Source of the DNA: a virus
Direction: 5' to 3' (one strand)
Length of the DNA stretch: 64,000 nucleotides
IMG/VR virus record: IMGVR_UViG_3300025727_000008
Coordinates: 14,573-78,572 of that record
Shown here: piece after piece, positions 1 to 51,084 of the stretch
Layout of the letters: each line of letters begins with the position of its first letter
Numbering within the stretch: position 1 is the first letter of the stretch
The notes under the pieces: generated by a model
Told to the model about the DNA's origin: nothing
The model's input: the letters and a program-made list of their open reading frames with translations, nothing else
Databases searched by the model: none
Program-made: the position numbers and the translations under genes

Positions 1-179
1 ACAGTATCTTCAATTAGTTTTTCCATTGCCTTTAAAAATGATTCACCGTGATATTGAAAGAAATCTTCAACATGATTTTCTTGTAAAGTTAAAAGGTTAT
101 TGATTGTTTTAAATTGGGTTTGCTGTTGCGCCCCCATTTGTGTTGATAAGTTACTATTACTCGTTCCAAATAACCCCAT
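1..179 (-). CDS. Hypothetical protein, partial (runs off the window), starts MGLFGTSNS
   Basis: Hand-translated open frame from ATG at 179 that overlaps the stop of the upstream ORF. Confidence 0.6.
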   Translation of the reverse strand, partial: MGLFGTSNSNLSTQMGAQQQTQFKTINNLLTLQENHVEDFFQYHGESFLKAMEKLIEDT

Positions 180-865
180 TACTCAACCACCTCTTCCGTA
201 ACAATTGCGACCTTAACGCCATCGGTTAATAGAGTTTTGACTCGCTCATTAATACTGTTAGTTTCTATTACTAATCTAAATAATTCTTCTTCTTTAGATT
301 CAATACCCATAGTAGGTGGTTTAATTGTCCAACCTAATGAAGATAATGATTGCATGTCTGTCTGTTTTAAACTAGTCAATGGGGCAGAAATTAAAGGGTT
401 TAACATTTTAGCAGAAGGAATATATGCACTAAAAGAAAGACCATGTTCTTCTGCTAACATTTGTTGTTCTAACATTTCATATTGCTTATGGATTGTTGCG
501 TGTTTATTACAATAAGTTCCCCTCATAGGATAGCCCCTTCTTACTTTATGTAATGGTAAAGGGGGGCGCATAGAATCTCCTGCTTCCCATATTTTTTGAG
601 AGCCACATACAACACATCTATCTTTAATATTATATTTAAATTTATATGGGAATTTAAGAAATGTTTTTTTCTCAGGCATTAAAACTTTAATTATTTCCTT
701 CAATTGTTTTTTGGGTTTTAAATTTTTATATTCATATTGCATTACTGACCCTGCTGCTCTCGCAGTACTAAAAGTATCTAAATATGGGTTTGAAGTAATA
801 TGTGCTGATTGTGCGCCTATTAAATTTGGGGGGTTGAAATTCATTGCCATGTGATATTCTCCCAT
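179..865 (-). CDS. Hypothetical protein with Zn-binding motif (CVVC...CNKH); likely start MAMNF at 850
   Basis: ORF track; Cys/His pattern; coupled to the GTPase gene. Confidence 0.6.
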   Translation of the reverse strand: MGEYHMAMNFNPPNLIGAQSAHITSNPYLDTFSTARAAGSVMQYEYKNLKPKKQLKEIIKVLMPEKKTFLKFPYKFKYNIKDRCVVCGSQKIWEAGDSMRPPLPLHKVRRGYPMRGTYCNKHATIHKQYEMLEQQMLAEEHGLSFSAYIPSAKMLNPLISAPLTSLKQTDMQSLSSLGWTIKPPTMGIESKEEELFRLVIETNSINERVKTLLTDGVKVAIVTEEVVE

Positions 866-1533
866 TAGTAATCCTTTATCATTGTTAGGATTCCCCTATA
901 TACCATTTCTGAATCTGATTTAGCACTTACTATGTATTTATAACAAGGTATTCCTTTATCATTTAACTTTTGCATACCATTTCTAAATGAGTCAAATATT
1001 GGATGTTTTTCAATAGATGTATAGTCATATTTATCTTTCCATAAATCATGTTTATTAGCCCATAATCCAACTGCAACAGGGTAATCATGTATTTTCTTTT
1101 TTTGTTTTTTTCCTTTGTGGTTCCAATAAGGAGTACAAATTGTATCAACTAAAAAAGTCCAACATAATTGTTGTTCTATATCATAATGTTTATCCATATG
1201 TCTATCATCAATCATAAAAATAATATATTTTACTTTTCTAGTTTTCATGTCTTGAACCCATTCATTCCAAAATACTGTTTCACCACCAACATCAGCAGTT
1301 TTAATGGTATGAGCATCACCATCTAATTTTACAAATTTTCTAGATGGTCGTTGTAATCCAACAGTTCTATCTGTAATAGCAGGGATTTCACCTCTAGTTC
1401 TTAATTGATGATGTAGAGTAGTTTTACCTACTTTACTTGCACCATATACTCCAAAAGGAATTGAATGTAATCTTTGATAGATTCTATTCATTCCTTCTAC
1501 AAATAAAATAGCGAAACCCGCCATCACCGACAT
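865..1533 (-). CDS. Ras/Arf-like small GTPase
   Basis: G1 GASKVGKTT, G2 Thr (RTVG), G3 DVGG, G4 NKHD, G5 SAK in correct order and spacing; hydrophobic N-terminal helix. Confidence 0.88.
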   Translation of the reverse strand: MSVMAGFAILFVEGMNRIYQRLHSIPFGVYGASKVGKTTLHHQLRTRGEIPAITDRTVGLQRPSRKFVKLDGDAHTIKTADVGGETVFWNEWVQDMKTRKVKYIIFMIDDRHMDKHYDIEQQLCWTFLVDTICTPYWNHKGKKQKKKIHDYPVAVGLWANKHDLWKDKYDYTSIEKHPIFDSFRNGMQKLNDKGIPCYKYIVSAKSDSEMVYRGILTMIKDY

Positions 1534-1539
1534 TATTAA

Positions 1540-1764
1540 TCACACCAAATGATGCCATAAATTAACAATCCCATTCCATGTAGAAGAATATAAATTATAC
1601 CCAAATAAAGGTATTGCATGACCTATCAAAAAACCTATTACTGTTGAGATTATACCCCATAACCAAAACCTCGCTCTAAGAAACCAAATATCAGCAGAGT
1701 GCGCTCTTTGCAAATCATATGCTAATGTGGATTCATCGAACCCCATTAGTATCTCAGATACCAT
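1540..1764 (-). CDS. Small membrane protein
   Basis: Hydrophobic segment FWLWGIISTVIGFLIGHAIPLFGY. Confidence 0.7.
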   Translation of the reverse strand: MVSEILMGFDESTLAYDLQRAHSADIWFLRARFWLWGIISTVIGFLIGHAIPLFGYNLYSSTWNGIVNLWHHLV

Positions 1765-1771
1765 TTAATCA

Positions 1772-2215
1772 CTACTCGTTAAATCCAGTTAAAAATGTAG
1801 GGTTTATTGTATTGCTATCAAATTGCGGTTGTTGGTTTTGTTGCATTGTAGGTAAGTTAGCATCTCCATACACCGGCTGACCGAAGGTTTGATTGAAACT
1901 TCTTAATGATTCTCTAACTCTCTTTCTATTATCTTCATCCCTTGCTTTTCTATTCCAATAAGAATCTATTTTTCTTTGTAGCAGGAAATCTTCTATTACA
2001 TCATTTAACATTAAATCAAATAGTGCTTTCAATAACATGATACCCCCTACTGTGCATATACCGAATAATACTGCATGGGAAAGTCCTGTGTATGGGAAAT
2101 CCATACCATATAAAGTATAGAAATAAATATTTGTTCCACTAATTGCACCAACAAATAGTATAGTCATTACTAGTCTTGTATCTGTATCAATACTAGGCAA
2201 ACACATCAACTCCAT
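1772..2215 (-). CDS. Two-TM membrane protein with Q-rich cytoplasmic tail
   Basis: Two hydrophobic segments followed by a charged helix; start codon uncertain. Confidence 0.7.
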   Translation of the reverse strand: MELMCLPSIDTDTRLVMTILFVGAISGTNIYFYTLYGMDFPYTGLSHAVLFGICTVGGIMLLKALFDLMLNDVIEDFLLQRKIDSYWNRKARDEDNRKRVRESLRSFNQTFGQPVYGDANLPTMQQNQQPQFDSNTINPTFLTGFNE

Positions 2216-2484
2216 GTGCAGGAATATGAGCCACCTGAACCGGATAGTATTGCAGTTATACCTGTTCCCATTGCTCTGTCGTGCATATCAAATTCAATAG
2301 TATTATTAGCAGTAAGAATTAATCTAGCAACTTCATCTGCTGAACCAACAGTAGTGTTATTATGGTCATATAATTTTAATGTTGCAGTTCCAGTAGAACA
2401 AAAATGAATGCTGGTCATTTTACATCTACCGTCATTCAATACTGCACTAGATGTTTTAACAGGACTACCTGCTGAAACCATCAC
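2206..2484 (-). CDS. Small beta-rich putative virion protein
   Basis: G/S/T-rich composition; downstream of the capsid gene. Confidence 0.5.
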   Translation of the reverse strand: MMVSAGSPVKTSSAVLNDGRCKMTSIHFCSTGTATLKLYDHNNTTVGSADEVARLILTANNTIEFDMHDRAMGTGITAILSGSGGSYSCTWS

Positions 2485-2894
2485 TTCACATCCTTAGTGG
2501 TTTTCTTCTTAGTAGTGGTTTTCTTAGCAACGGGTTTCTTTTCTTTTACTGTTTCTTTAGGGACAACAGTTTCAACCACTGCTTCAACCACTGCTTCAAC
2601 CTGCTTTTTAACAGGAGTTTTTACTTTCTTAGGAAATAATATATCATTAACATCGCCTTCTACACCTAAATGTCGTCGTATTGCTTTAATTCTATTTTCA
2701 GGTAAATTAGCAATATCCTTTTTATCATCAACTGTAAAGTCAACTTGGATTGCTTCATCTCCTAAATAAAGTGCTGCGATTCTAGCAGGTACTTCACAAG
2801 GGGTTTGTGCTGTAAGAGAATATATTTTTTCTCCAACCCCTCTAATTTCTAATGCGCCTTCAACTCTATGTGTTTTCAATCTTATTAATGCCAT
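2481..2894 (-). CDS. Hypothetical protein with K/T-rich C-terminal tail (start re-assigned to MALIRLK at 2894)
   Basis: GGTGA SD precedes ATG 2894; the track's longer N-terminus runs through a hairpin. Confidence 0.6.
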   Translation of the reverse strand: MALIRLKTHRVEGALEIRGVGEKIYSLTAQTPCEVPARIAALYLGDEAIQVDFTVDDKKDIANLPENRIKAIRRHLGVEGDVNDILFPKKVKTPVKKQVEAVVEAVVETVVPKETVKEKKPVAKKTTTKKKTTKDVK

Positions 2895-2915
2895 AATATC
2901 ACCATTTTTTAAAGG

Positions 2916-2957
2916 GTAGTAACCCCTACCCCGATGTTTCGGAGTAGAGGCTACTAC
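2916..2957 (-). terminator. Stable stem-loop after the major capsid gene (terminator or mRNA-stabilising hairpin)
   Basis: Minus-strand gtagtagcctctactccga-aaca-tcggggtaggggttactac, 19-bp stem with G-U pairs. Confidence 0.6.
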
Positions 2958-2985
2958 TTTACATTTCACTTATTATTTAAGTATC

Positions 2986-4389
2986 TCAAGCACTCTTTAG
3001 GTTGGTAATCTTACCTTGACCCTTGAAGAAGGAACAGCATGTTTCGCCCATTGTGCGATACATACCTTGATTTCCAAGTTTACCAACACCGAATGGATTT
3101 CCACTAGTAATTCCATCCTCAAAATACTGAGTAGGCTTCATTACAGATAACCAAAGATGGTCTGTATCAAGAATTAACATATCACTTAACCTGTTGCTTG
3201 TTGATTGACCAGTTGACGGCATATCTTTAGCAGGGATAATTGGTATGTCGTAGTAGGTTGCCACACGGAAACCTACTTCTTGACCCTTTACTCCACGAAC
3301 ACCATTATGGGAAGGAACTATTTCTTTCCTATCCATAAATCGCTCTTGTGATTGTAGTAAATCAGAAAGTTTCTGTATGGTATCATATCCAGTAATGATA
3401 ACTTTAGGATTACCACCGTTAGTGCGGATTCTACGAATCATATCATTAAGTATGCTTAGAGTTAAAACTCTACAATTACCTGATGTATAATCAGTACCGA
3501 AGTCAACTTCTGCGTCTAGGAAAGATGCAACACCTGTGTAAGTGTAAGCACCTGTTCCGCCGCTAGTATCAACAGTAACAGTTCTAGTTGAACCAAAGAT
3601 AGTAGTAGCATCAGCAAGTTGTGCTGCTGTACCATTATTTGTTTGGTTGTGATAGAATACGTCGTCATCAGCCATCTTTGCAAGTTCAGCAGCAGATGAT
3701 ATAATCTTCATTAGAGAAGTATAATTCTTCTCAATTCCAGTTGTACCGTTCTCTGAATACTTTTCAAGAGGCATAACTAACATCTTGCTTTGTACTTCAG
3801 CGTGTAACTTACCCATGTCTTCTCTAACGATAGCGCGAATATCTCCGACACCATCATCAATTGCAGCCATTTCCATTCCTAGTTCTGAGAACTCAAATAG
3901 ATGTGCAATAGTCTTAGGGCTAACATATAGTTTAGTATATTCAGGAGCGATTGCTCTGAATCCATCTGCACCACCTAATGCTGCGTTTTCTCCAACACCA
4001 CCAATTTGGTCTGCTCTAGGTGTTTCTGCCTGAGCAGAAGTCATTGCTGCTGTTACTGCATTAGTACCAGTTCCGAATGCTGCACTTGAACCACCAATAG
4101 GTCGGCTCTTTAGTACTCTCCAACCACTAGATGTGTAAGGTCGCTTTGCAAGCATTGCAAGAGGGTTAACTTCTTGGTTTAATACTGACCAAACTTTTTG
4201 TCCGTATAATAGGTTGTATAAATCTCCTAATCCTGCTGCACCGGTAAATGCATTAGCACTAGTATCGTGAGGTGTTCCAAATCCACCAACGACTCCACCT
4301 GCTTTAAGCAAAGCGTTGCCGCTACCAGTTCCACCATATCCGTATGTTGCTGCTTCTAAATCTTTCATTGTCTTAATATATCCACTCAT
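2986..4389 (-). CDS. Major capsid protein (HK97 fold)
   Basis: 467 aa, directly after protease/scaffold; C-terminal pattern typical of haloviral-type MCPs (VATYYDIPIIP..MLILDTDHL); high-expression codon bias. Confidence 0.85.
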   Translation of the reverse strand: MSGYIKTMKDLEAATYGYGGTGSGNALLKAGGVVGGFGTPHDTSANAFTGAAGLGDLYNLLYGQKVWSVLNQEVNPLAMLAKRPYTSSGWRVLKSRPIGGSSAAFGTGTNAVTAAMTSAQAETPRADQIGGVGENAALGGADGFRAIAPEYTKLYVSPKTIAHLFEFSELGMEMAAIDDGVGDIRAIVREDMGKLHAEVQSKMLVMPLEKYSENGTTGIEKNYTSLMKIISSAAELAKMADDDVFYHNQTNNGTAAQLADATTIFGSTRTVTVDTSGGTGAYTYTGVASFLDAEVDFGTDYTSGNCRVLTLSILNDMIRRIRTNGGNPKVIITGYDTIQKLSDLLQSQERFMDRKEIVPSHNGVRGVKGQEVGFRVATYYDIPIIPAKDMPSTGQSTSNRLSDMLILDTDHLWLSVMKPTQYFEDGITSGNPFGVGKLGNQGMYRTMGETCCSFFKGQGKITNLKSA

Positions 4390-5602: not shown

Positions 5603-8188
5603 CTAATCGCTATTTTTATTAGGAAATTTTAAATTACTATATTTATCCTCATTAATATTCCATATATTAACATCATCTTCATCCTTTAACATTGATTGTT
5701 TCTTACCTGTCCAAGCAATCCATGTTTTCTTTTCATTTATTGGAACAACTCTTAGATGTAGTCTAGTTTCAAACTTATCTCCTTCTAATTTATATTCATG
5801 ATAACCGTCTTTTTGAACACCTAATGTTACTATCCCCTTATCTATAATTTTACCTTCATTTATATTAGTTGCAACAATAGCAGGATATTTATTAGATTTA
5901 CCAAATAAATTATAAATATCATCAGTATCTTCAATATCTATTAACCATGCTAATCTTTTATTTTTATAATTAATTACAAAATTAATATTACCATCTTCTT
6001 GAAGAGAAATATTAAATTTTCCTTGTTTAGAATCTTCCTTATAGATTATATTTTCATCCACATCTTTTTCTAAAATTTCTTCATTAGAAAAGAATTTATT
6101 AGGATGTTTGTAAATGAATGAATCTTGTTTTTTCATCCAAGACATTAATTTAGATTCTACTGATTTAAATAAACTTTGGAATAAATCAGGGTATTCTTTC
6201 TTTACAAATAAAACTATTTTTTCAAATTCTAATTCATCATTTCCGCTATTTAATATTTCATTTCTTATAGATATTCTTAACTCAGAACGCTTACTTTTTA
6301 TTAATTGATTTAATTCTTCTTTCCACAAATCAATATTATGTAAAGCGTTTTTCTCCATTAAATTATCTCCTTCAAATCCATATAAAGTATAGCCTTCTAA
6401 ATTTTCTTTTAATATAATTTCAGCAGTTCCATGTATATCGTCTGTAATATAATATCCCTTTTTTAGTTTTTTAGGTTTTACTAAATCAGACTCTAAACCA
6501 CTCATAACTCTAAATGGTTTAGGAACAACTCCTGAAACTAAACCGCGTATAGCAGATAATGATTTTTTACTTTTAGATGCTAATTTTTCTAATGTTGCGA
6601 TATTATCAGATTGAGTAACTTCAGGAACTTCTATCACTTTAGCGGAATACAAACTAAAACCATTTTTATTTTTAGTAACTTCATCAACTTTAACTCTAAC
6701 AATACTACCAACATCTACATTGATTTTAGTGTTTAAAGCCTTACCAACTTCTAAATAATCCTTCCCTTCAAATTCAACAGTTGCATAATTTCTAGCAACT
6801 TCTGCTGTAACTGCACCTATACCCATTGTATAAGAATGTAAATTGCTTTTAGTTTTTCTATCTTTTAGAACTATCACATCTAAGTCAACAAATTTTTTCC
6901 ATTTAATCCATTTTGGATTTTTTCTATTTCCAATATAATAGGTAGATTCTATATCTTTAATAACTACTCCTTCAGAAGCAGGTAATTTCATAATATCTTT
7001 AGAATACTCTTCTACTTCTTTCTTAGAATCTGCAATACGAGTATCTTTTTTAGAAGGAAATGCTAAATTTTCAGAAGAGTGTTGAGCATATTGATATAAT
7101 AAAATATTAATTCTTTCTCTTAAAGGTTCTTCTGTTATTTCTTTTCCTTCATGTATCATAATATCAAAAACATGAGCCTTTAGTGTACCTTCAGTTTTTT
7201 TATGGAAAACATGAGTAATAGTGTCTGCTCGTTGTAATGGCTCATCATCTAAGAATAACATTAATTCTGCATCTAAGATACAATCACCAAACTGTTTCTT
7301 TTCCATATGTTTAACTTGTTCAGGGCATTTTAAAGTAATATCTTTTTGATTAAAAGAATAAATTTTAACTTTATTATCAAACTTATGAATTTGTATTCTC
7401 ATTCCATCATATTTTTCTTGAACTACAAATTCACCTGTTAAACCTTTAATATCATCTAAATCATCTATTTCAAATATCCTATACATTGGTTTATTTGGTT
7501 GAATAAAATCTATTCCTGCTTTTGTTATATCTAATTCTAATAATGAATCCCATTGTTCTTCATTATATTTTTCTAAATATATTTTTTCTAATTGTTTAAA
7601 TGCGTGTTTACATTTAGATTCTATTCTTCTAGTATCGTCATTTTCATCACCATAATGTTCAATAATATAAATAGGAACATCTTTAGGTTCTAAATCCAAA
7701 CCCATATATCCTTGAGTAATATTATCAGGTTGTAAATTATGTGCATTCCAAGATTTATCAGGAATAGGATTAGTATGAGAACGCACTGCATAATGAATAA
7801 ATGCTAATAACATAGATTCATTTTTCATAAATTCTTTGATTACATCATCACCTAATTGTTTTGAAAATGGGTCGCTTACTTTATCAGATTTGAACCTAAG
7901 ACTTTTAACACCTTCATAAATTTCTTTTGCTTGTCTAGATTCAGGGTCATATGCTTCTTCTGAAAAAACTATATCTTCTTTCAAATATTTTTTTAATTCT
8001 CTAGTAAAATCATCTAAAGAATCAAACTGATTTCTAACTTCCTTTACTGTTTTTCGCCACTTCTTGTTATAATCAGAAGGGTTTTCTTTAGCAGATAAAT
8101 AAGAATATCTGACTCTTTCAAAAAAATCCAATACTCGTTTAGTTAAAGTATCTTTTTCCTTTTCAAAAATAACCCCTGTTTGCGGCAT
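5603..8188 (-). CDS. Multi-domain ATP-dependent DNA ligase-like protein in the head module
   Basis: EKYDGMR (motif I), LDAEL, VFDIM, EGVVIK, WIKWK; OB domain; extra N- and C-terminal domains. Confidence 0.82.
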   Translation of the reverse strand: MPQTGVIFEKEKDTLTKRVLDFFERVRYSYLSAKENPSDYNKKWRKTVKEVRNQFDSLDDFTRELKKYLKEDIVFSEEAYDPESRQAKEIYEGVKSLRFKSDKVSDPFSKQLGDDVIKEFMKNESMLLAFIHYAVRSHTNPIPDKSWNAHNLQPDNITQGYMGLDLEPKDVPIYIIEHYGDENDDTRRIESKCKHAFKQLEKIYLEKYNEEQWDSLLELDITKAGIDFIQPNKPMYRIFEIDDLDDIKGLTGEFVVQEKYDGMRIQIHKFDNKVKIYSFNQKDITLKCPEQVKHMEKKQFGDCILDAELMLFLDDEPLQRADTITHVFHKKTEGTLKAHVFDIMIHEGKEITEEPLRERINILLYQYAQHSSENLAFPSKKDTRIADSKKEVEEYSKDIMKLPASEGVVIKDIESTYYIGNRKNPKWIKWKKFVDLDVIVLKDRKTKSNLHSYTMGIGAVTAEVARNYATVEFEGKDYLEVGKALNTKINVDVGSIVRVKVDEVTKNKNGFSLYSAKVIEVPEVTQSDNIATLEKLASKSKKSLSAIRGLVSGVVPKPFRVMSGLESDLVKPKKLKKGYYITDDIHGTAEIILKENLEGYTLYGFEGDNLMEKNALHNIDLWKEELNQLIKSKRSELRISIRNEILNSGNDELEFEKIVLFVKKEYPDLFQSLFKSVESKLMSWMKKQDSFIYKHPNKFFSNEEILEKDVDENIIYKEDSKQGKFNISLQEDGNINFVINYKNKRLAWLIDIEDTDDIYNLFGKSNKYPAIVATNINEGKIIDKGIVTLGVQKDGYHEYKLEGDKFETRLHLRVVPINEKKTWIAWTGKKQSMLKDEDDVNIWNINEDKYSNLKFPNKNSD

Positions 8189-29502: not shown

Positions 29503-30133
29503 ATGAAAGAATGCTATAAATGTGGAAAAATAATCAGTGATAATAAATATTGTTGTTATTCTTGTATTAAAAGTGAGGCGATATAATGTTTGACGAAGAA
29601 GATTAATATAACTCAAACGGGCAAATGCGAAGACTACTGAGCGAACTTTGTAGGTTAATGAACTCGGCCATAATGGTTTTCTATTGAAATACCATTTGGA
29701 TAGCCAACCTACCCATTGTAAGTCCCGACCTAATAAAATTCCCTTCGGGGTCTTAATAATCACAAAGTTCTCACAACCATATGGTAGCATCAATAAAGAT
29801 GCGCTACCACATCGGGGGTGAAAATAAGTGTACGACGACGAAGATTGATTATCCTAACAATACAAGTGTAAGTCCTACCACACCATATGGTTTGGTAACT
29901 TTGTGGAAACCCTAATTATAATAAAATTATAACAAATTACTAAAAGGGCATCGGGTAGCAGTGACTTTACTATAAAATACGATTAAGGTTCTTGCAATCC
30001 GTTCCGGTATGTCGAAGTTTCTAGAATGTCGGGATAGCGGTCAGGCATAGTGTTTGTGTCTTGCGTCGTGGTTTTTTATATCGTGAAATTAATCACTGTG
30101 CGTGTGTATTGCTACTTTCAGCCCTAAAGGTAA

Positions 30134-30442
30134 TCAGATTACAATGGGAATGGGTGTTAGGGAAAGAAGAAGAGTATTATATTGTTCAATATTATCTTCA
30201 GTAATATCACCAAAGGCATTTATTGCATCAATGTTTTTCTTCATTATTGTTAGTGCTTTAGTTGCTTCTTCTACTACTTCAGATGCAAAATCACCTCTAA
30301 ATTTTAAGGACTTAATAATAATCTTATGTACTGAACCAGATTTAGATTGTGATATTTCTATTTCAAAGGGATAAGACATATTTAATATCTGTTCGGGTGT
30401 GTTTGTATGTTCTGCCATAATCCAAGCATGATAAATATACAT
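30134..30442 (-). CDS. Small hypothetical protein (likely start MAEHTN)
   Basis: ORF track; divergent from 30559. Confidence 0.5.
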   Translation of the reverse strand: MYIYHAWIMAEHTNTPEQILNMSYPFEIEISQSKSGSVHKIIIKSLKFRGDFASEVVEEATKALTIMKKNIDAINAFGDITEDNIEQYNTLLLSLTPIPIVI

Positions 30443-46265: not shown

Positions 46266-46492
46266 GTGATGATATGGATATAATAGCAAGAGTACCACGA
46301 AATGCTACCACTGAACTATTAATCAAAACAGGAACTTTTTGGAAAATTGAAGTGGTAGATATTAGATGGTATTCTGATGGTAAACCAACAAGAAAAGGAG
46401 TAAGAATAAATATGGATGAATTGCCTACTTTAATTAAGGCACTTCAAAAAATTAATAATAAAAATGAGGCAAACAAGGATGAGTCTGAGTAG
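46253..46492 (+). CDS. PC4/YdbC-like ssDNA-binding protein
   Basis: VVDIRWYSDGKPTRKGVRINMDEL is a PC4-family signature. Confidence 0.78.
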   Translation: MVYMSDDMDIIARVPRNATTELLIKTGTFWKIEVVDIRWYSDGKPTRKGVRINMDELPTLIKALQKINNKNEANKDESE

Positions 46493-48008
46493 ATTATCAA
46501 AAATGTGTGAAGCAATAGAAATAACTAATAGTTTCAAAGATAAAATTAAAATTATAGATGAATCGTTGAGTTCATTTTCTAATCCTAAATTAGTGTTAGA
46601 TATTCTAACTCTAAATTTAGAAACTAATTCTATTGGTAATAAACGAGCAATAACTTGGGTTGCTAATGCTTTAGAGTTGTTTGAAGAAGAAGTTAAAAGT
46701 CAAGAAGAAATATGGGGAGATATAGGAGAAGGACTGTATCAATATTTACCTAGTAAAGAAGATAGTAAACTTTCAATTAAAGAAGTTTATTCCTTATTAT
46801 TATTAGATTGTTCTAGTATTAACAGTAATTCATATGTTATTTTTGCTAGTGCAATAAAAGATATGTCTGATTTAGAGATTAAATGGTTTATTAGATATTG
46901 GTTAAGGATTCCTAGAAATAGAGTTTCATATTCAATTGTTGTTAAGGCAATAAATAAAAGATTTCCTAATAATGATGTAATTAAATTATGTAATATACAA
47001 CATGTTTCAATAGTATTTTCTTATTTAGAATCAGGTAGAACACCACCTACTACTATACAAACAGGAATGTTTCTAAAACCATCATTGGCTAAAACTTATA
47101 ATTCTAATTTACCTTCAGAATATATTTTAGACATAAAGTATGATGGTAATAGATATCAAATACATAAAGATAATAAAAATGTTATGATTTTTAATAGAAA
47201 AGGTAAACTTGTAACTCATCAGTTTCCTGATGTAGCAGAACAGGTTTCACACTTCAATGCCAATAGTTGTATTTTAGATACTGAAATATATCCCATAATT
47301 AAAAATGGTAGTATAGACCCTGCACCACACAAGAAAATGGCGGCAAGGGTACATTCCAAAGATAAACAAGAAGCCTTGCTTAAATGCCCAGTTAAAATGG
47401 TAATTTTTGATATTATACAATACATGGGTGAGTTATTAATTGACGAACCATATAGAATAAGGTTATCACATCTATTGGATTTTCCAATAGAAAATAGAGT
47501 ATGGAGTTTTGATATAGATACTTCGATTGAATCAGCATATAACATTGCTATTAATAGAGGATTTGAGGGTATTATGATTAAAGATTTAAATGCCCCATAC
47601 AAAAGTGGTAGGAGTAATAATATATTGAAACATAAACCTTCTAGAATAGAATTAGATGTAGTTATTACTTCTGCTGAATATGGTAAAGGTAGAAGGACAG
47701 GTGTGTTTAGTTCATTTGGAATTTCAGTAAAAACTGAAAATGGATATGAAAGTATAGGTAAAGTAGGCACTGGATTATCAGATAGTGATTTGCTACATCT
47801 AACAACAGAACTTAAGAAGATAATAGATAACTATTCTTCGGATGTGTATTATGTATTACCTAGAATAGTTTTAGAAGTTAGATGTGATTTAATATCACAA
47901 GATTCTAATGGTAATTATGGATTAAGGTTTCCTAGAGTAGAGAGAATTAGAAATGATAAACACCCATATGATTGCAATACTTTAGAAGATGTTAAAAACA
48001 ATAGGTAA
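46464..48008 (+). CDS. lig: ATP-dependent DNA ligase (replicative, archaeal type)
   Basis: DIKYDGNR, LDTE, IFDI, EGIMIK, KVGTG, LRFPRV..IRNDK. Confidence 0.93.
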   Translation: MRQTRMSLSRLSKMCEAIEITNSFKDKIKIIDESLSSFSNPKLVLDILTLNLETNSIGNKRAITWVANALELFEEEVKSQEEIWGDIGEGLYQYLPSKEDSKLSIKEVYSLLLLDCSSINSNSYVIFASAIKDMSDLEIKWFIRYWLRIPRNRVSYSIVVKAINKRFPNNDVIKLCNIQHVSIVFSYLESGRTPPTTIQTGMFLKPSLAKTYNSNLPSEYILDIKYDGNRYQIHKDNKNVMIFNRKGKLVTHQFPDVAEQVSHFNANSCILDTEIYPIIKNGSIDPAPHKKMAARVHSKDKQEALLKCPVKMVIFDIIQYMGELLIDEPYRIRLSHLLDFPIENRVWSFDIDTSIESAYNIAINRGFEGIMIKDLNAPYKSGRSNNILKHKPSRIELDVVITSAEYGKGRRTGVFSSFGISVKTENGYESIGKVGTGLSDSDLLHLTTELKKIIDNYSSDVYYVLPRIVLEVRCDLISQDSNGNYGLRFPRVERIRNDKHPYDCNTLEDVKNNR

Positions 48009-50835: not shown

Positions 50836-51084
50836 ATGGTAAAGAGATTTTTGGACTTTAATAAAGATGGGGTTGTTGATAAAGAAGATTTCAACCATCT
50901 CATATTAAGATATGAGATAATTGTGATAGGTGGTATATTACTAATGGTATTACCTATACTAAACACATTAGGCTACATTAGTGTTGATTCAAACTTTTTC
51001 TGGATGTTGTGTGGATTAGTCATGACGGCAGAAGGATTAGTTGAAATAAAATATGAGCGAAAAAAGAGGAATGAAAATGAATGA
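50836..51084 (+). CDS. Two-TM protein with N-terminal EF-hand-like loop
   Basis: DFNKDGVVDKED followed by two hydrophobic helices. Confidence 0.65.
   Translation: MVKRFLDFNKDGVVDKEDFNHLILRYEIIVIGGILLMVLPILNTLGYISVDSNFFWMLCGLVMTAEGLVEIKYERKKRNENE

Follow-up and report, generated by a model that had tools for sequence, protein, structure and literature searches.

The minus strand at the beginning of the window, which is the whole analysed stretch of 64,000 nucleotides (nt) at bases 14573-78572 of the 78.6-kb IMG/VR virus contig IMGVR_UViG_3300025727_000008 (completeness estimate 81%), was found to contain a cassette of five genes. They encode the membrane proteins TM147 and TM74, an Arf-like small GTPase, the Cys/His protein Zn228 and the Gln-rich protein p244 (Table 1). 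The genes on this strand were found in the order capsid gene, p162, a gene for a protein of 91 amino acids (aa), TM147, TM74, GTPase, Zn228 and p244. The stop codon of the capsid gene was followed by p162 after 16 nt, p162 and the 91-aa gene overlapped as TGATG, and the 91-aa gene and TM147 overlapped by 10 nt. Spacers of 7 nt (TM147 to TM74) and 6 nt (TM74 to GTPase) were followed by two TAATG overlaps, one between the GTPase stop and the Zn228 start and the other between the Zn228 stop and the p244 start. The GTPase gene is thus translationally coupled to its neighbours on both sides, and in the window it belongs to a single close-packed series of genes that includes the capsid gene. A preliminary description, made from the sequence, had listed two membrane proteins, a Zn-binding protein and an MGLFG-starting protein as tightly coupled neighbours of the GTPase, and these spacers and overlaps confirm it.

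The five G motifs named in the preliminary description were all located in the GTPase, G1 to G5 standing in order in a G domain of about 170-200 aa, as in the Ras superfamily. The residues G31, G36, K37, T39, D81, G84, N160, K161 and D163 were invariant in an alignment of 20 sequences extending down to 25-34% identity, and the G motifs were found to be intact and invariant across about 700 viral loci. The AlphaFold2 (AF2) model of the protein was confident (pLDDT 89, pTM 0.85) and contained a helix at aa 2-22 followed by a canonical G domain, with a beta-hairpin insert, at aa 136-145 in the model, bearing the basic run KGKKQKKK. A chance open reading frame (ORF) was rejected because the motifs were conserved, the fold was confident and about 700 loci were conserved. 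Fused or longer forms of the GTPase were looked for and none was found.

The N-terminal helix was hydrophobic in every virus group. In the window, hydrophobicity was uniform over aa 1-12 (mean Eisenberg H 0.79, moment 0.14), amphipathic character being confined to aa 8-21 (moment about 0.5). The earlier reading of this end as a hydrophobic/amphipathic helix of the Arf/Sar1 type is retained for its hydrophobic part; judged by its residues, the N-terminus looks more like a hydrophobic anchor than like the classical Arf amphipathic helix. The position of the catalytic Gln was occupied by Glu in 38 of the 54 unique sequences of group 1, the window's group, and by Gln in the remainder. Group 2 contained mostly Gln with some Glu or Asp at this position, group 3 contained His, and the distant relative P0142 contained Ala. 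His is present at this position in Sar1 also.

The window GTPase gave sub-threshold matches only in Pfam (SRPRB at E 2.2e-4, followed by MMR_HSR1, Roc and Ras), and its sole GTPase match in NCBIfam was small_GTP, likewise sub-threshold. The Arf model PF00025 gave no match to it at E <= 0.1 and its gathering score was not reached; at E <= 0.01 the same model was matched by 21 of the 58 alignment members (best 1.9e-15, for one member). In a profile search of PDB sequences, Rab33, 8OUN (a GTP-binding protein of Asgard archaea) and KRas differed by no more than an order of magnitude, and because these were nearly equal, sequence alone assigns no family. By structural comparison the GTPase was closest to Arf/Arl, not to Ras/Rab/Rho, and in the protein atlas the nearest clusters after the viral ones were Arf-bearing bacterial and Asgard clusters. 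The window protein is supported as a genuine but very divergent Arf-like small GTPase with a hydrophobic N-terminus, and it is predicted to work like an Arf/Sar-type membrane switch, although it stays below the Pfam thresholds.

An alternative is an SR-beta-like targeting factor, in which a membrane-anchored Arf-like GTPase would assist the insertion or assembly of the viral membrane proteins encoded beside it. The viral GTPase differs from SR-beta in that its score for PF09439 (21.1 bits) lies below the curated gathering cut-off of 25, Arf proteins score higher than SR-beta structurally, and none of the neighbouring genes was seen to encode an SR-alpha-like partner. To our knowledge, archaea are not known to have SR-beta, and this alternative is considered quite improbable.

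The spans of the membrane proteins were predicted by a simple hydropathy window. In TM147 they were followed by a charged helix and then by a Gln/Asn-rich tail. In Zn228, C84 and C119 were invariant in 125 unique relatives and H122 was conserved in all but two, whereas C87 was kept in group 1 only; since this second Cys is group-specific, metal binding by Zn228 is plausible rather than proven. The protein p244 begins with MGLFG; its helical middle part (ITQENID) is conserved, a stretch rich in Gln, Met and Pro comes next, and the C-terminus is hydrophobic. In the protein atlas it fell in its own viral cluster only (score 0.79). None of the five cassette proteins matched PHROGs, and the partners of the GTPase matched no family in Pfam or NCBIfam.

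Two observations were made beside these partners. In a close relative (L005:7093-7779, GTPase 90% identical, 91.7-kb contig), Zn228 was found in three ORFs of 77, 62 and 105 aa. The split corresponds to two frameshifts, which may be assembly errors and not decay, and the window contains an A-run there. The cassette was followed, outside the window, by a 1244-aa Lys/Glu/Asn-rich protein (L002:10269-14003); its slot was the only non-conserved one in relatives (similarity 25-29% or absent), and the spacing from this slot to the next gene varied by kilobases among them.

Table 1. Position of the GTPase cassette, its parts and other features in the window (nt of the window unless another source is named)
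Feature	Position	Strand	Details
Arf-like small GTPase, 222 aa	865..1533	-	G1-G5 motifs
GTPase, N-terminal hydrophobic helix, aa 2-22	1468-1530	-	
GTPase, G1 GASKVGKTT, aa 31-39	1417-1443	-	
GTPase, G2 R56-T57	1363-1365 (T57)	-	
GTPase, G3 DVGGE, aa 81-85	1279-1293	-	
GTPase, basic insert KGKKQKKK, aa 140-147	1093-1116	-	
GTPase, G4 NKHD, aa 160-163	1045-1056	-	
GTPase, G5 SAK, aa 203-205	919-927	-	
TM147, 147 aa	1772..2215	-	strong span aa 43-61, weaker span about aa 14-36
TM74, 74 aa	1540..1764	-	one span aa 33-51, Kyte-Doolittle 1.79
Zn228, Cys/His protein, 228 aa	179..865	-	C84-x2-C87 ... C119-x2-H122 (nt 488-616)
p244 (MGLFG/Gln-rich), first 59 codons	1..179	-	continues beyond the window
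p244, full gene, 244 aa	L002:14017-14751 (= G000:C1:14017-14751)		
p162 (Lys-rich C-terminus) and 91-aa beta-rich protein	2206..2969	-	between capsid gene and cassette
Major capsid protein, HK97-type	2986..4389	-	upstream neighbour of the cassette only in group 1
861-aa protein	5603-8188	-	ATP-dependent DNA ligase domain aa 251-431; structural arm, adjoins prohead protease
Minus-strand arm		-	terminase, portal, 861-aa ligase-domain protein, S78 prohead protease, HK97/SU10-type major capsid protein
Plus-strand arm		+	UvrD helicase, second ATP-dependent ligase, family-B polymerase
Second, canonical ligase	46464-48008	+	
Small ORFs, 81-90 aa	29257-29502, 30102-30374, 50836-51084	+	one predicted hydrophobic span each

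Relatives of the GTPase were collected by an exhaustive phmmer search of 1.84 billion representative proteins, which gave 61 matches at E <= 0.001. Among these were close relatives forming a single cluster at 50% identity, fragments, and complete proteins with about 220-264 aa that were 28-39% identical. A word-indexed protein search gave 353 cluster representatives, mostly from Tara or other marine data, on contigs of up to 104 kb. In IMG/VR, 416 loci of group 1 and 288 loci of group 2 were found; the distant relatives P0145, P0155 and P0135 were not found there.

The synteny of group 1 was read on the 80 best of its 416 loci, in which the GTPase was 74-90% identical to that of the window. 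The five-gene order was kept in 80 of 80 loci wherever the contig covers the block, and TM74 was matched by an ORF 80 times in this group. The region was found to contain, in order, a ligase-fusion gene, protease, capsid, p162, p91, TM147, TM74, GTPase, Zn228, p244 and a variable protein, followed by the neck and tail genes. The GTPase was the most conserved protein of the region; at locus L079, for instance, it was 75% identical, compared with 66% and 55% for the capsid protein and the protease, and the partners TM147, TM74, Zn228 and p244 reached 44%, 59%, 58% and 56%, respectively.

The GTPase of group 2 contained about 240 aa at about 35% identity, and the G+C content was higher. The same five-gene series was present, followed by an extra 83-aa two-span protein. 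Capsid, protease and neck genes were not found within 10 kb of this block, which was flanked by large unknown proteins upstream and by a helix-turn-helix (HTH) protein with weak small-terminase-family matches downstream. In group 3 (L164-L167; one contig of 110 kb), the series was found directly downstream of a large ORF of 511-553 aa (L164:7250-8785, L167:6820-8481), which was read as a thermosome/chaperonin gene from its N-terminal sequence; the block itself was followed by more proteins of membrane or secreted type. Thermosome genes are known from magroviruses (PMC5434244).

Zn228 was linked across the three groups by iterated profiles, with 155 matches in the first two groups and an E value of about 1e-13 in group 3, and an iterated HMM linked p244 to 15 group-2 matches and to group 3, with the MGLFG N-terminus kept in L167. 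Across the groups the membrane proteins are alike in position, size class and architecture, with no significant similarity in sequence. TM147 was found to have counterparts of the same architecture with 178-272 aa in groups 2 and 3, and TM74 positional analogues of 72-85 aa. Homology between the groups was not significant for TM74 (hhalign E 0.035), nor for the membrane proteins of group 1 compared with those of group 2 (hhalign probability 1-5%, best E 0.0082).

The linkage of the GTPase to the membrane-protein genes, whose absence in other genomes the preliminary description had set as a refutation, was therefore found to persist in all group-1 loci that could be read and in groups 2 and 3. 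The placement of the cassette downstream of the capsid gene, given in the same description, holds for group 1 with p162 and the 91-aa gene intervening, and does not extend to the other groups. Those two genes are coupled to the cassette in the window, yet they were not kept with it outside group 1. Because the five genes stay together in three groups while the flanking genes change, they look like a self-contained functional module and not a part of the capsid operon as such.

The neighbourhood of the block bears on two further explanations. In the first, the cassette would form a membrane-bound platform for virion assembly or packaging, or a replication/assembly compartment, to which the GTPase recruits viral components. 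T4 head assembly starts on the inner membrane. In each of the groups the block was found among morphogenesis genes or adjoining them (capsid, terminase-like HTH gene and thermosome, respectively), and it was found in a tight operon with the capsid gene in the window, which argues for such a platform; its position relative to individual structural genes varies, which argues against it. In the second, the membrane proteins and the GTPase would be carried in the virion as ejection proteins and injected, opening the host membrane for DNA entry. T7 and P22 have ejection proteins, and the group-1 block lies between head and neck genes, a frequent place for them. The position of the block differs in groups 2 and 3, and a GTP switch inside the capsid would have no nucleotide supply, so that this second explanation is judged very improbable.

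The assembly platform was also weighed against the nearest cultured relatives by capsid protein, which are haloviruses such as HCTV-1 (23.6% identity). HCTV-1 shares the head module, and no P-loop protein was found in its capsid-to-neck interval, which contains four small proteins. Since HCTV-1 has no GTPase at the equivalent site, a related head module works without it, and a core role in assembly is argued against because HCTV-1 builds virions in this state. The platform is accordingly rated as rather unlikely. One of the four small proteins, the 109-aa product of HCTV-1 gene 116 (L168:9203-9532), has a hydrophobic span near its N-terminus and ends in an acidic tail; its gene was found between the head and neck genes, at the site that is occupied by the GTPase cassette in group-1 magroviruses.

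Close relatives of the GTPase outside these viruses were sought by a pattern scan of 185,579 prokaryote species, each represented by one genome, in which a single GTPase copy was found. This copy (L163, NZMJ01000101.1; GTPase 76% identical) lies on a 28.9-kb contig of a metagenome-assembled genome labelled Maricaulis sp. The contig also bears a magrovirus capsid, a protease and the whole cassette, and most likely it comes from a virus and was wrongly binned with a bacterial genome. No match to the GTPase was found by tblastn in 50,697 GenBank phage records. The GTPase is not mentioned in the main text of the magrovirus papers searched or in a survey of archaeal tailed viruses, and a literature search on a Poseidoniales virus GTPase gave nothing relevant.

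The window contained about 30% G+C and its genes were arranged in two divergent arms. Magroviruses are tailed viruses of Marine Group II archaea with genomes of 65-100 kb, 1-2 ligases and a polymerase that is split in group B1 (PMC5434244), and because the gene content fits this published description, the virus is regarded as magrovirus-like. The low G+C content and the magrovirus-like genome make Marine Group II archaea, which are abundant in the ocean, the probable host, and the halophile framing of the preliminary description was abandoned. Other candidates for a membrane-acting or holin-like protein are the three small plus-strand ORFs with one predicted span each (Table 1).

Contigs from RNA libraries that were identical to the window, taken from four runs of a single study, covered parts of TM147 and Zn228 at low depth, and in the same runs the capsid and protease genes were covered at higher contig depth. 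The GTPase gene itself lay under no RNA-library contig, a gap which shows nothing; such contigs cannot rank expression, and DNA carry-over is possible. The contig depth was found to fall at window positions 2600-2700, from about 17-23 at the capsid and the start of p162 to about 2 in the rest of p162, in two of the four runs. Attenuation before the cassette would give such a fall, which is no more than a hint given how poorly contig depth serves as a measure.

From the features described above, a membrane-anchored GTP switch working on the cytoplasmic membrane of the host is well supported, and the partners would be its anchors, regulator and scaffold. The module formed by TM147, TM74, GTPase, Zn228 and p244 would be expressed together with the structural genes. 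The hydrophobic N-terminal helix would hold the Arf-like switch at the host membrane, probably assisted by the conserved basic/aromatic insert. TM147 and TM74 may serve as anchors or targets of the GTPase, Zn228 as its regulator or effector, and p244 as a scaffold. Late in infection the module would remodel or permeabilise the host membrane and thereby release the virions, GTP binding or hydrolysis being the trigger or timer of release. A self-contained membrane GTP-switch module with virion release as the leading guess is the reading that we tentatively prefer, with confidence clearly short of even. More doubtful is the stronger proposal, in which the GTPase and its four partners bring about GTP-timed deformation or rupture of the membrane and archaeal tailed viruses would thereby have a first identified egress machine.

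The guess of egress was made because the block has a late-gene context, because extra membrane proteins stand beside it, because the module is dispensable for assembly in relatives, and because egress in these viruses is uncharacterised. The small membrane or secreted proteins added directly after the block in groups 2 and 3 were counted in its favour, as was, weakly because of possible DNA carry-over, the RNA-library coverage of TM147 and Zn228. The lysis genes of lambda sit just before the small terminase, like the group-2 block before its HTH gene. The egress machinery of archaeal tailed viruses has been stated to be completely uncharacterised (PMC10791045).

Several points weigh against virion release. 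Searches of Pfam, PHROG, NCBIfam and PADLOC gave no resemblance of any partner to a holin family, to ArvB/ArvC, to ArfGAP or to defence proteins, and TM147 (147-272 aa across the groups) is large for a holin. The catalytic residue varies between lineages (E, Q, H, D and once A), so that the hydrolysis rate may differ between them, and the metal site of Zn228 is incompletely conserved. The timing of expression was taken from gene position alone. Other small proteins with a hydrophobic span are encoded elsewhere in the genome and could be lysis genes, which weakens the argument for egress by elimination. The egress, lysis or vesicle role put forward in the preliminary description is itself a leading guess drawn from sequence.

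Vesicle formation is known from the ArvA/ArvB/ArvC (OapA/B/C) operon of Haloferax volcanii, which contains a GTPase, ArvB and the Zn-ribbon protein ArvC (PMC10927574). The main ArvA holders named are Halobacteriota, Methanobacteriota and DPANN, and Poseidoniales are not mentioned (PMC10927574). ArvA, an archaeal small GTPase with an N-terminal helix, drives vesiculation from an operon with a Zn-ribbon protein (PMC10927574), and the viral GTPase likewise precedes a Cys-motif protein. This likeness favours a role in host takeover or superinfection exclusion at the membrane, by an entry block, altered transport or decoy vesicles such as ArvA would form. None of 38 Zn228 relatives matched OapC (PF09845) at E <= 1, a model that does match a Haloferax control genome. 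The cassette neighbours in groups 1 and 2 gave no Pfam match and therefore contain neither ArvB (DUF2073) nor ArvC (PF09845). The lack of OapC homology and of PADLOC matches, together with the location of the block in the late structural arm and not among early genes, makes takeover or exclusion unlikely.

The GTPase surpasses the capsid protein in conservation, has been found in viruses alone and is accompanied by four fixed partners, which makes the cassette a concrete and cloneable candidate for a membrane-acting system. Even if egress is not its role, the retention of such a GTP switch in hundreds of viral lineages makes it likely that an important step of infection is under its control. 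If the cassette is an egress machine of this kind, its lysis would follow a principle that has no relation to holin-endolysin systems, and membrane remodelling by a small GTPase in archaea would gain a second example, from a virus.

Compared with known systems, the block resembles phage holin/lysis cassettes in its small membrane proteins with charged C-terminal tails, in its position beside late genes, in its tight coupling and, in group 2, in its place just upstream of a terminase-like gene. It differs from them in that it contains no endolysin or cell-wall hydrolase and no PHROG or Pfam holin match; the likely host would be without murein. We know of no lysis cassette that includes a GTPase. 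Within the Arf family, the viral GTPase was 16-23% identical to Arf1, Arf6, Arl1, Arl3, Arl6, Arl8 and Asgard ArfR (8OUM/8OUK/8OUN; bioRxiv 10.1101/2024.02.28.582541). It differs from these proteins by E85 in place of the catalytic Gln in most of group 1, by the uniformly hydrophobic N-terminus, by the basic hairpin insert within aa 136-150 and by its occurrence in viruses only. Few Arf-like GTPases are on record outside eukaryotes (Asgard ArfR, ArvA), and the viral protein joins them as a further branch. With ArvA, which acts on the cell membrane, it shares the character of a small GTPase, the N-terminal helix, the MMR_HSR1/Arf ambiguity and the operon with a Zn-motif protein, whereas two membrane proteins and a Gln-rich protein are present in the viral block instead of ArvB. 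The analogy with ArvA drawn in the preliminary description thus stands for the architecture of a GTPase followed by a Cys-motif protein and falls for the identity of the neighbours, and the ArvA operon may be taken as the closest functional analogy in archaea, by a likeness that is architectural only.

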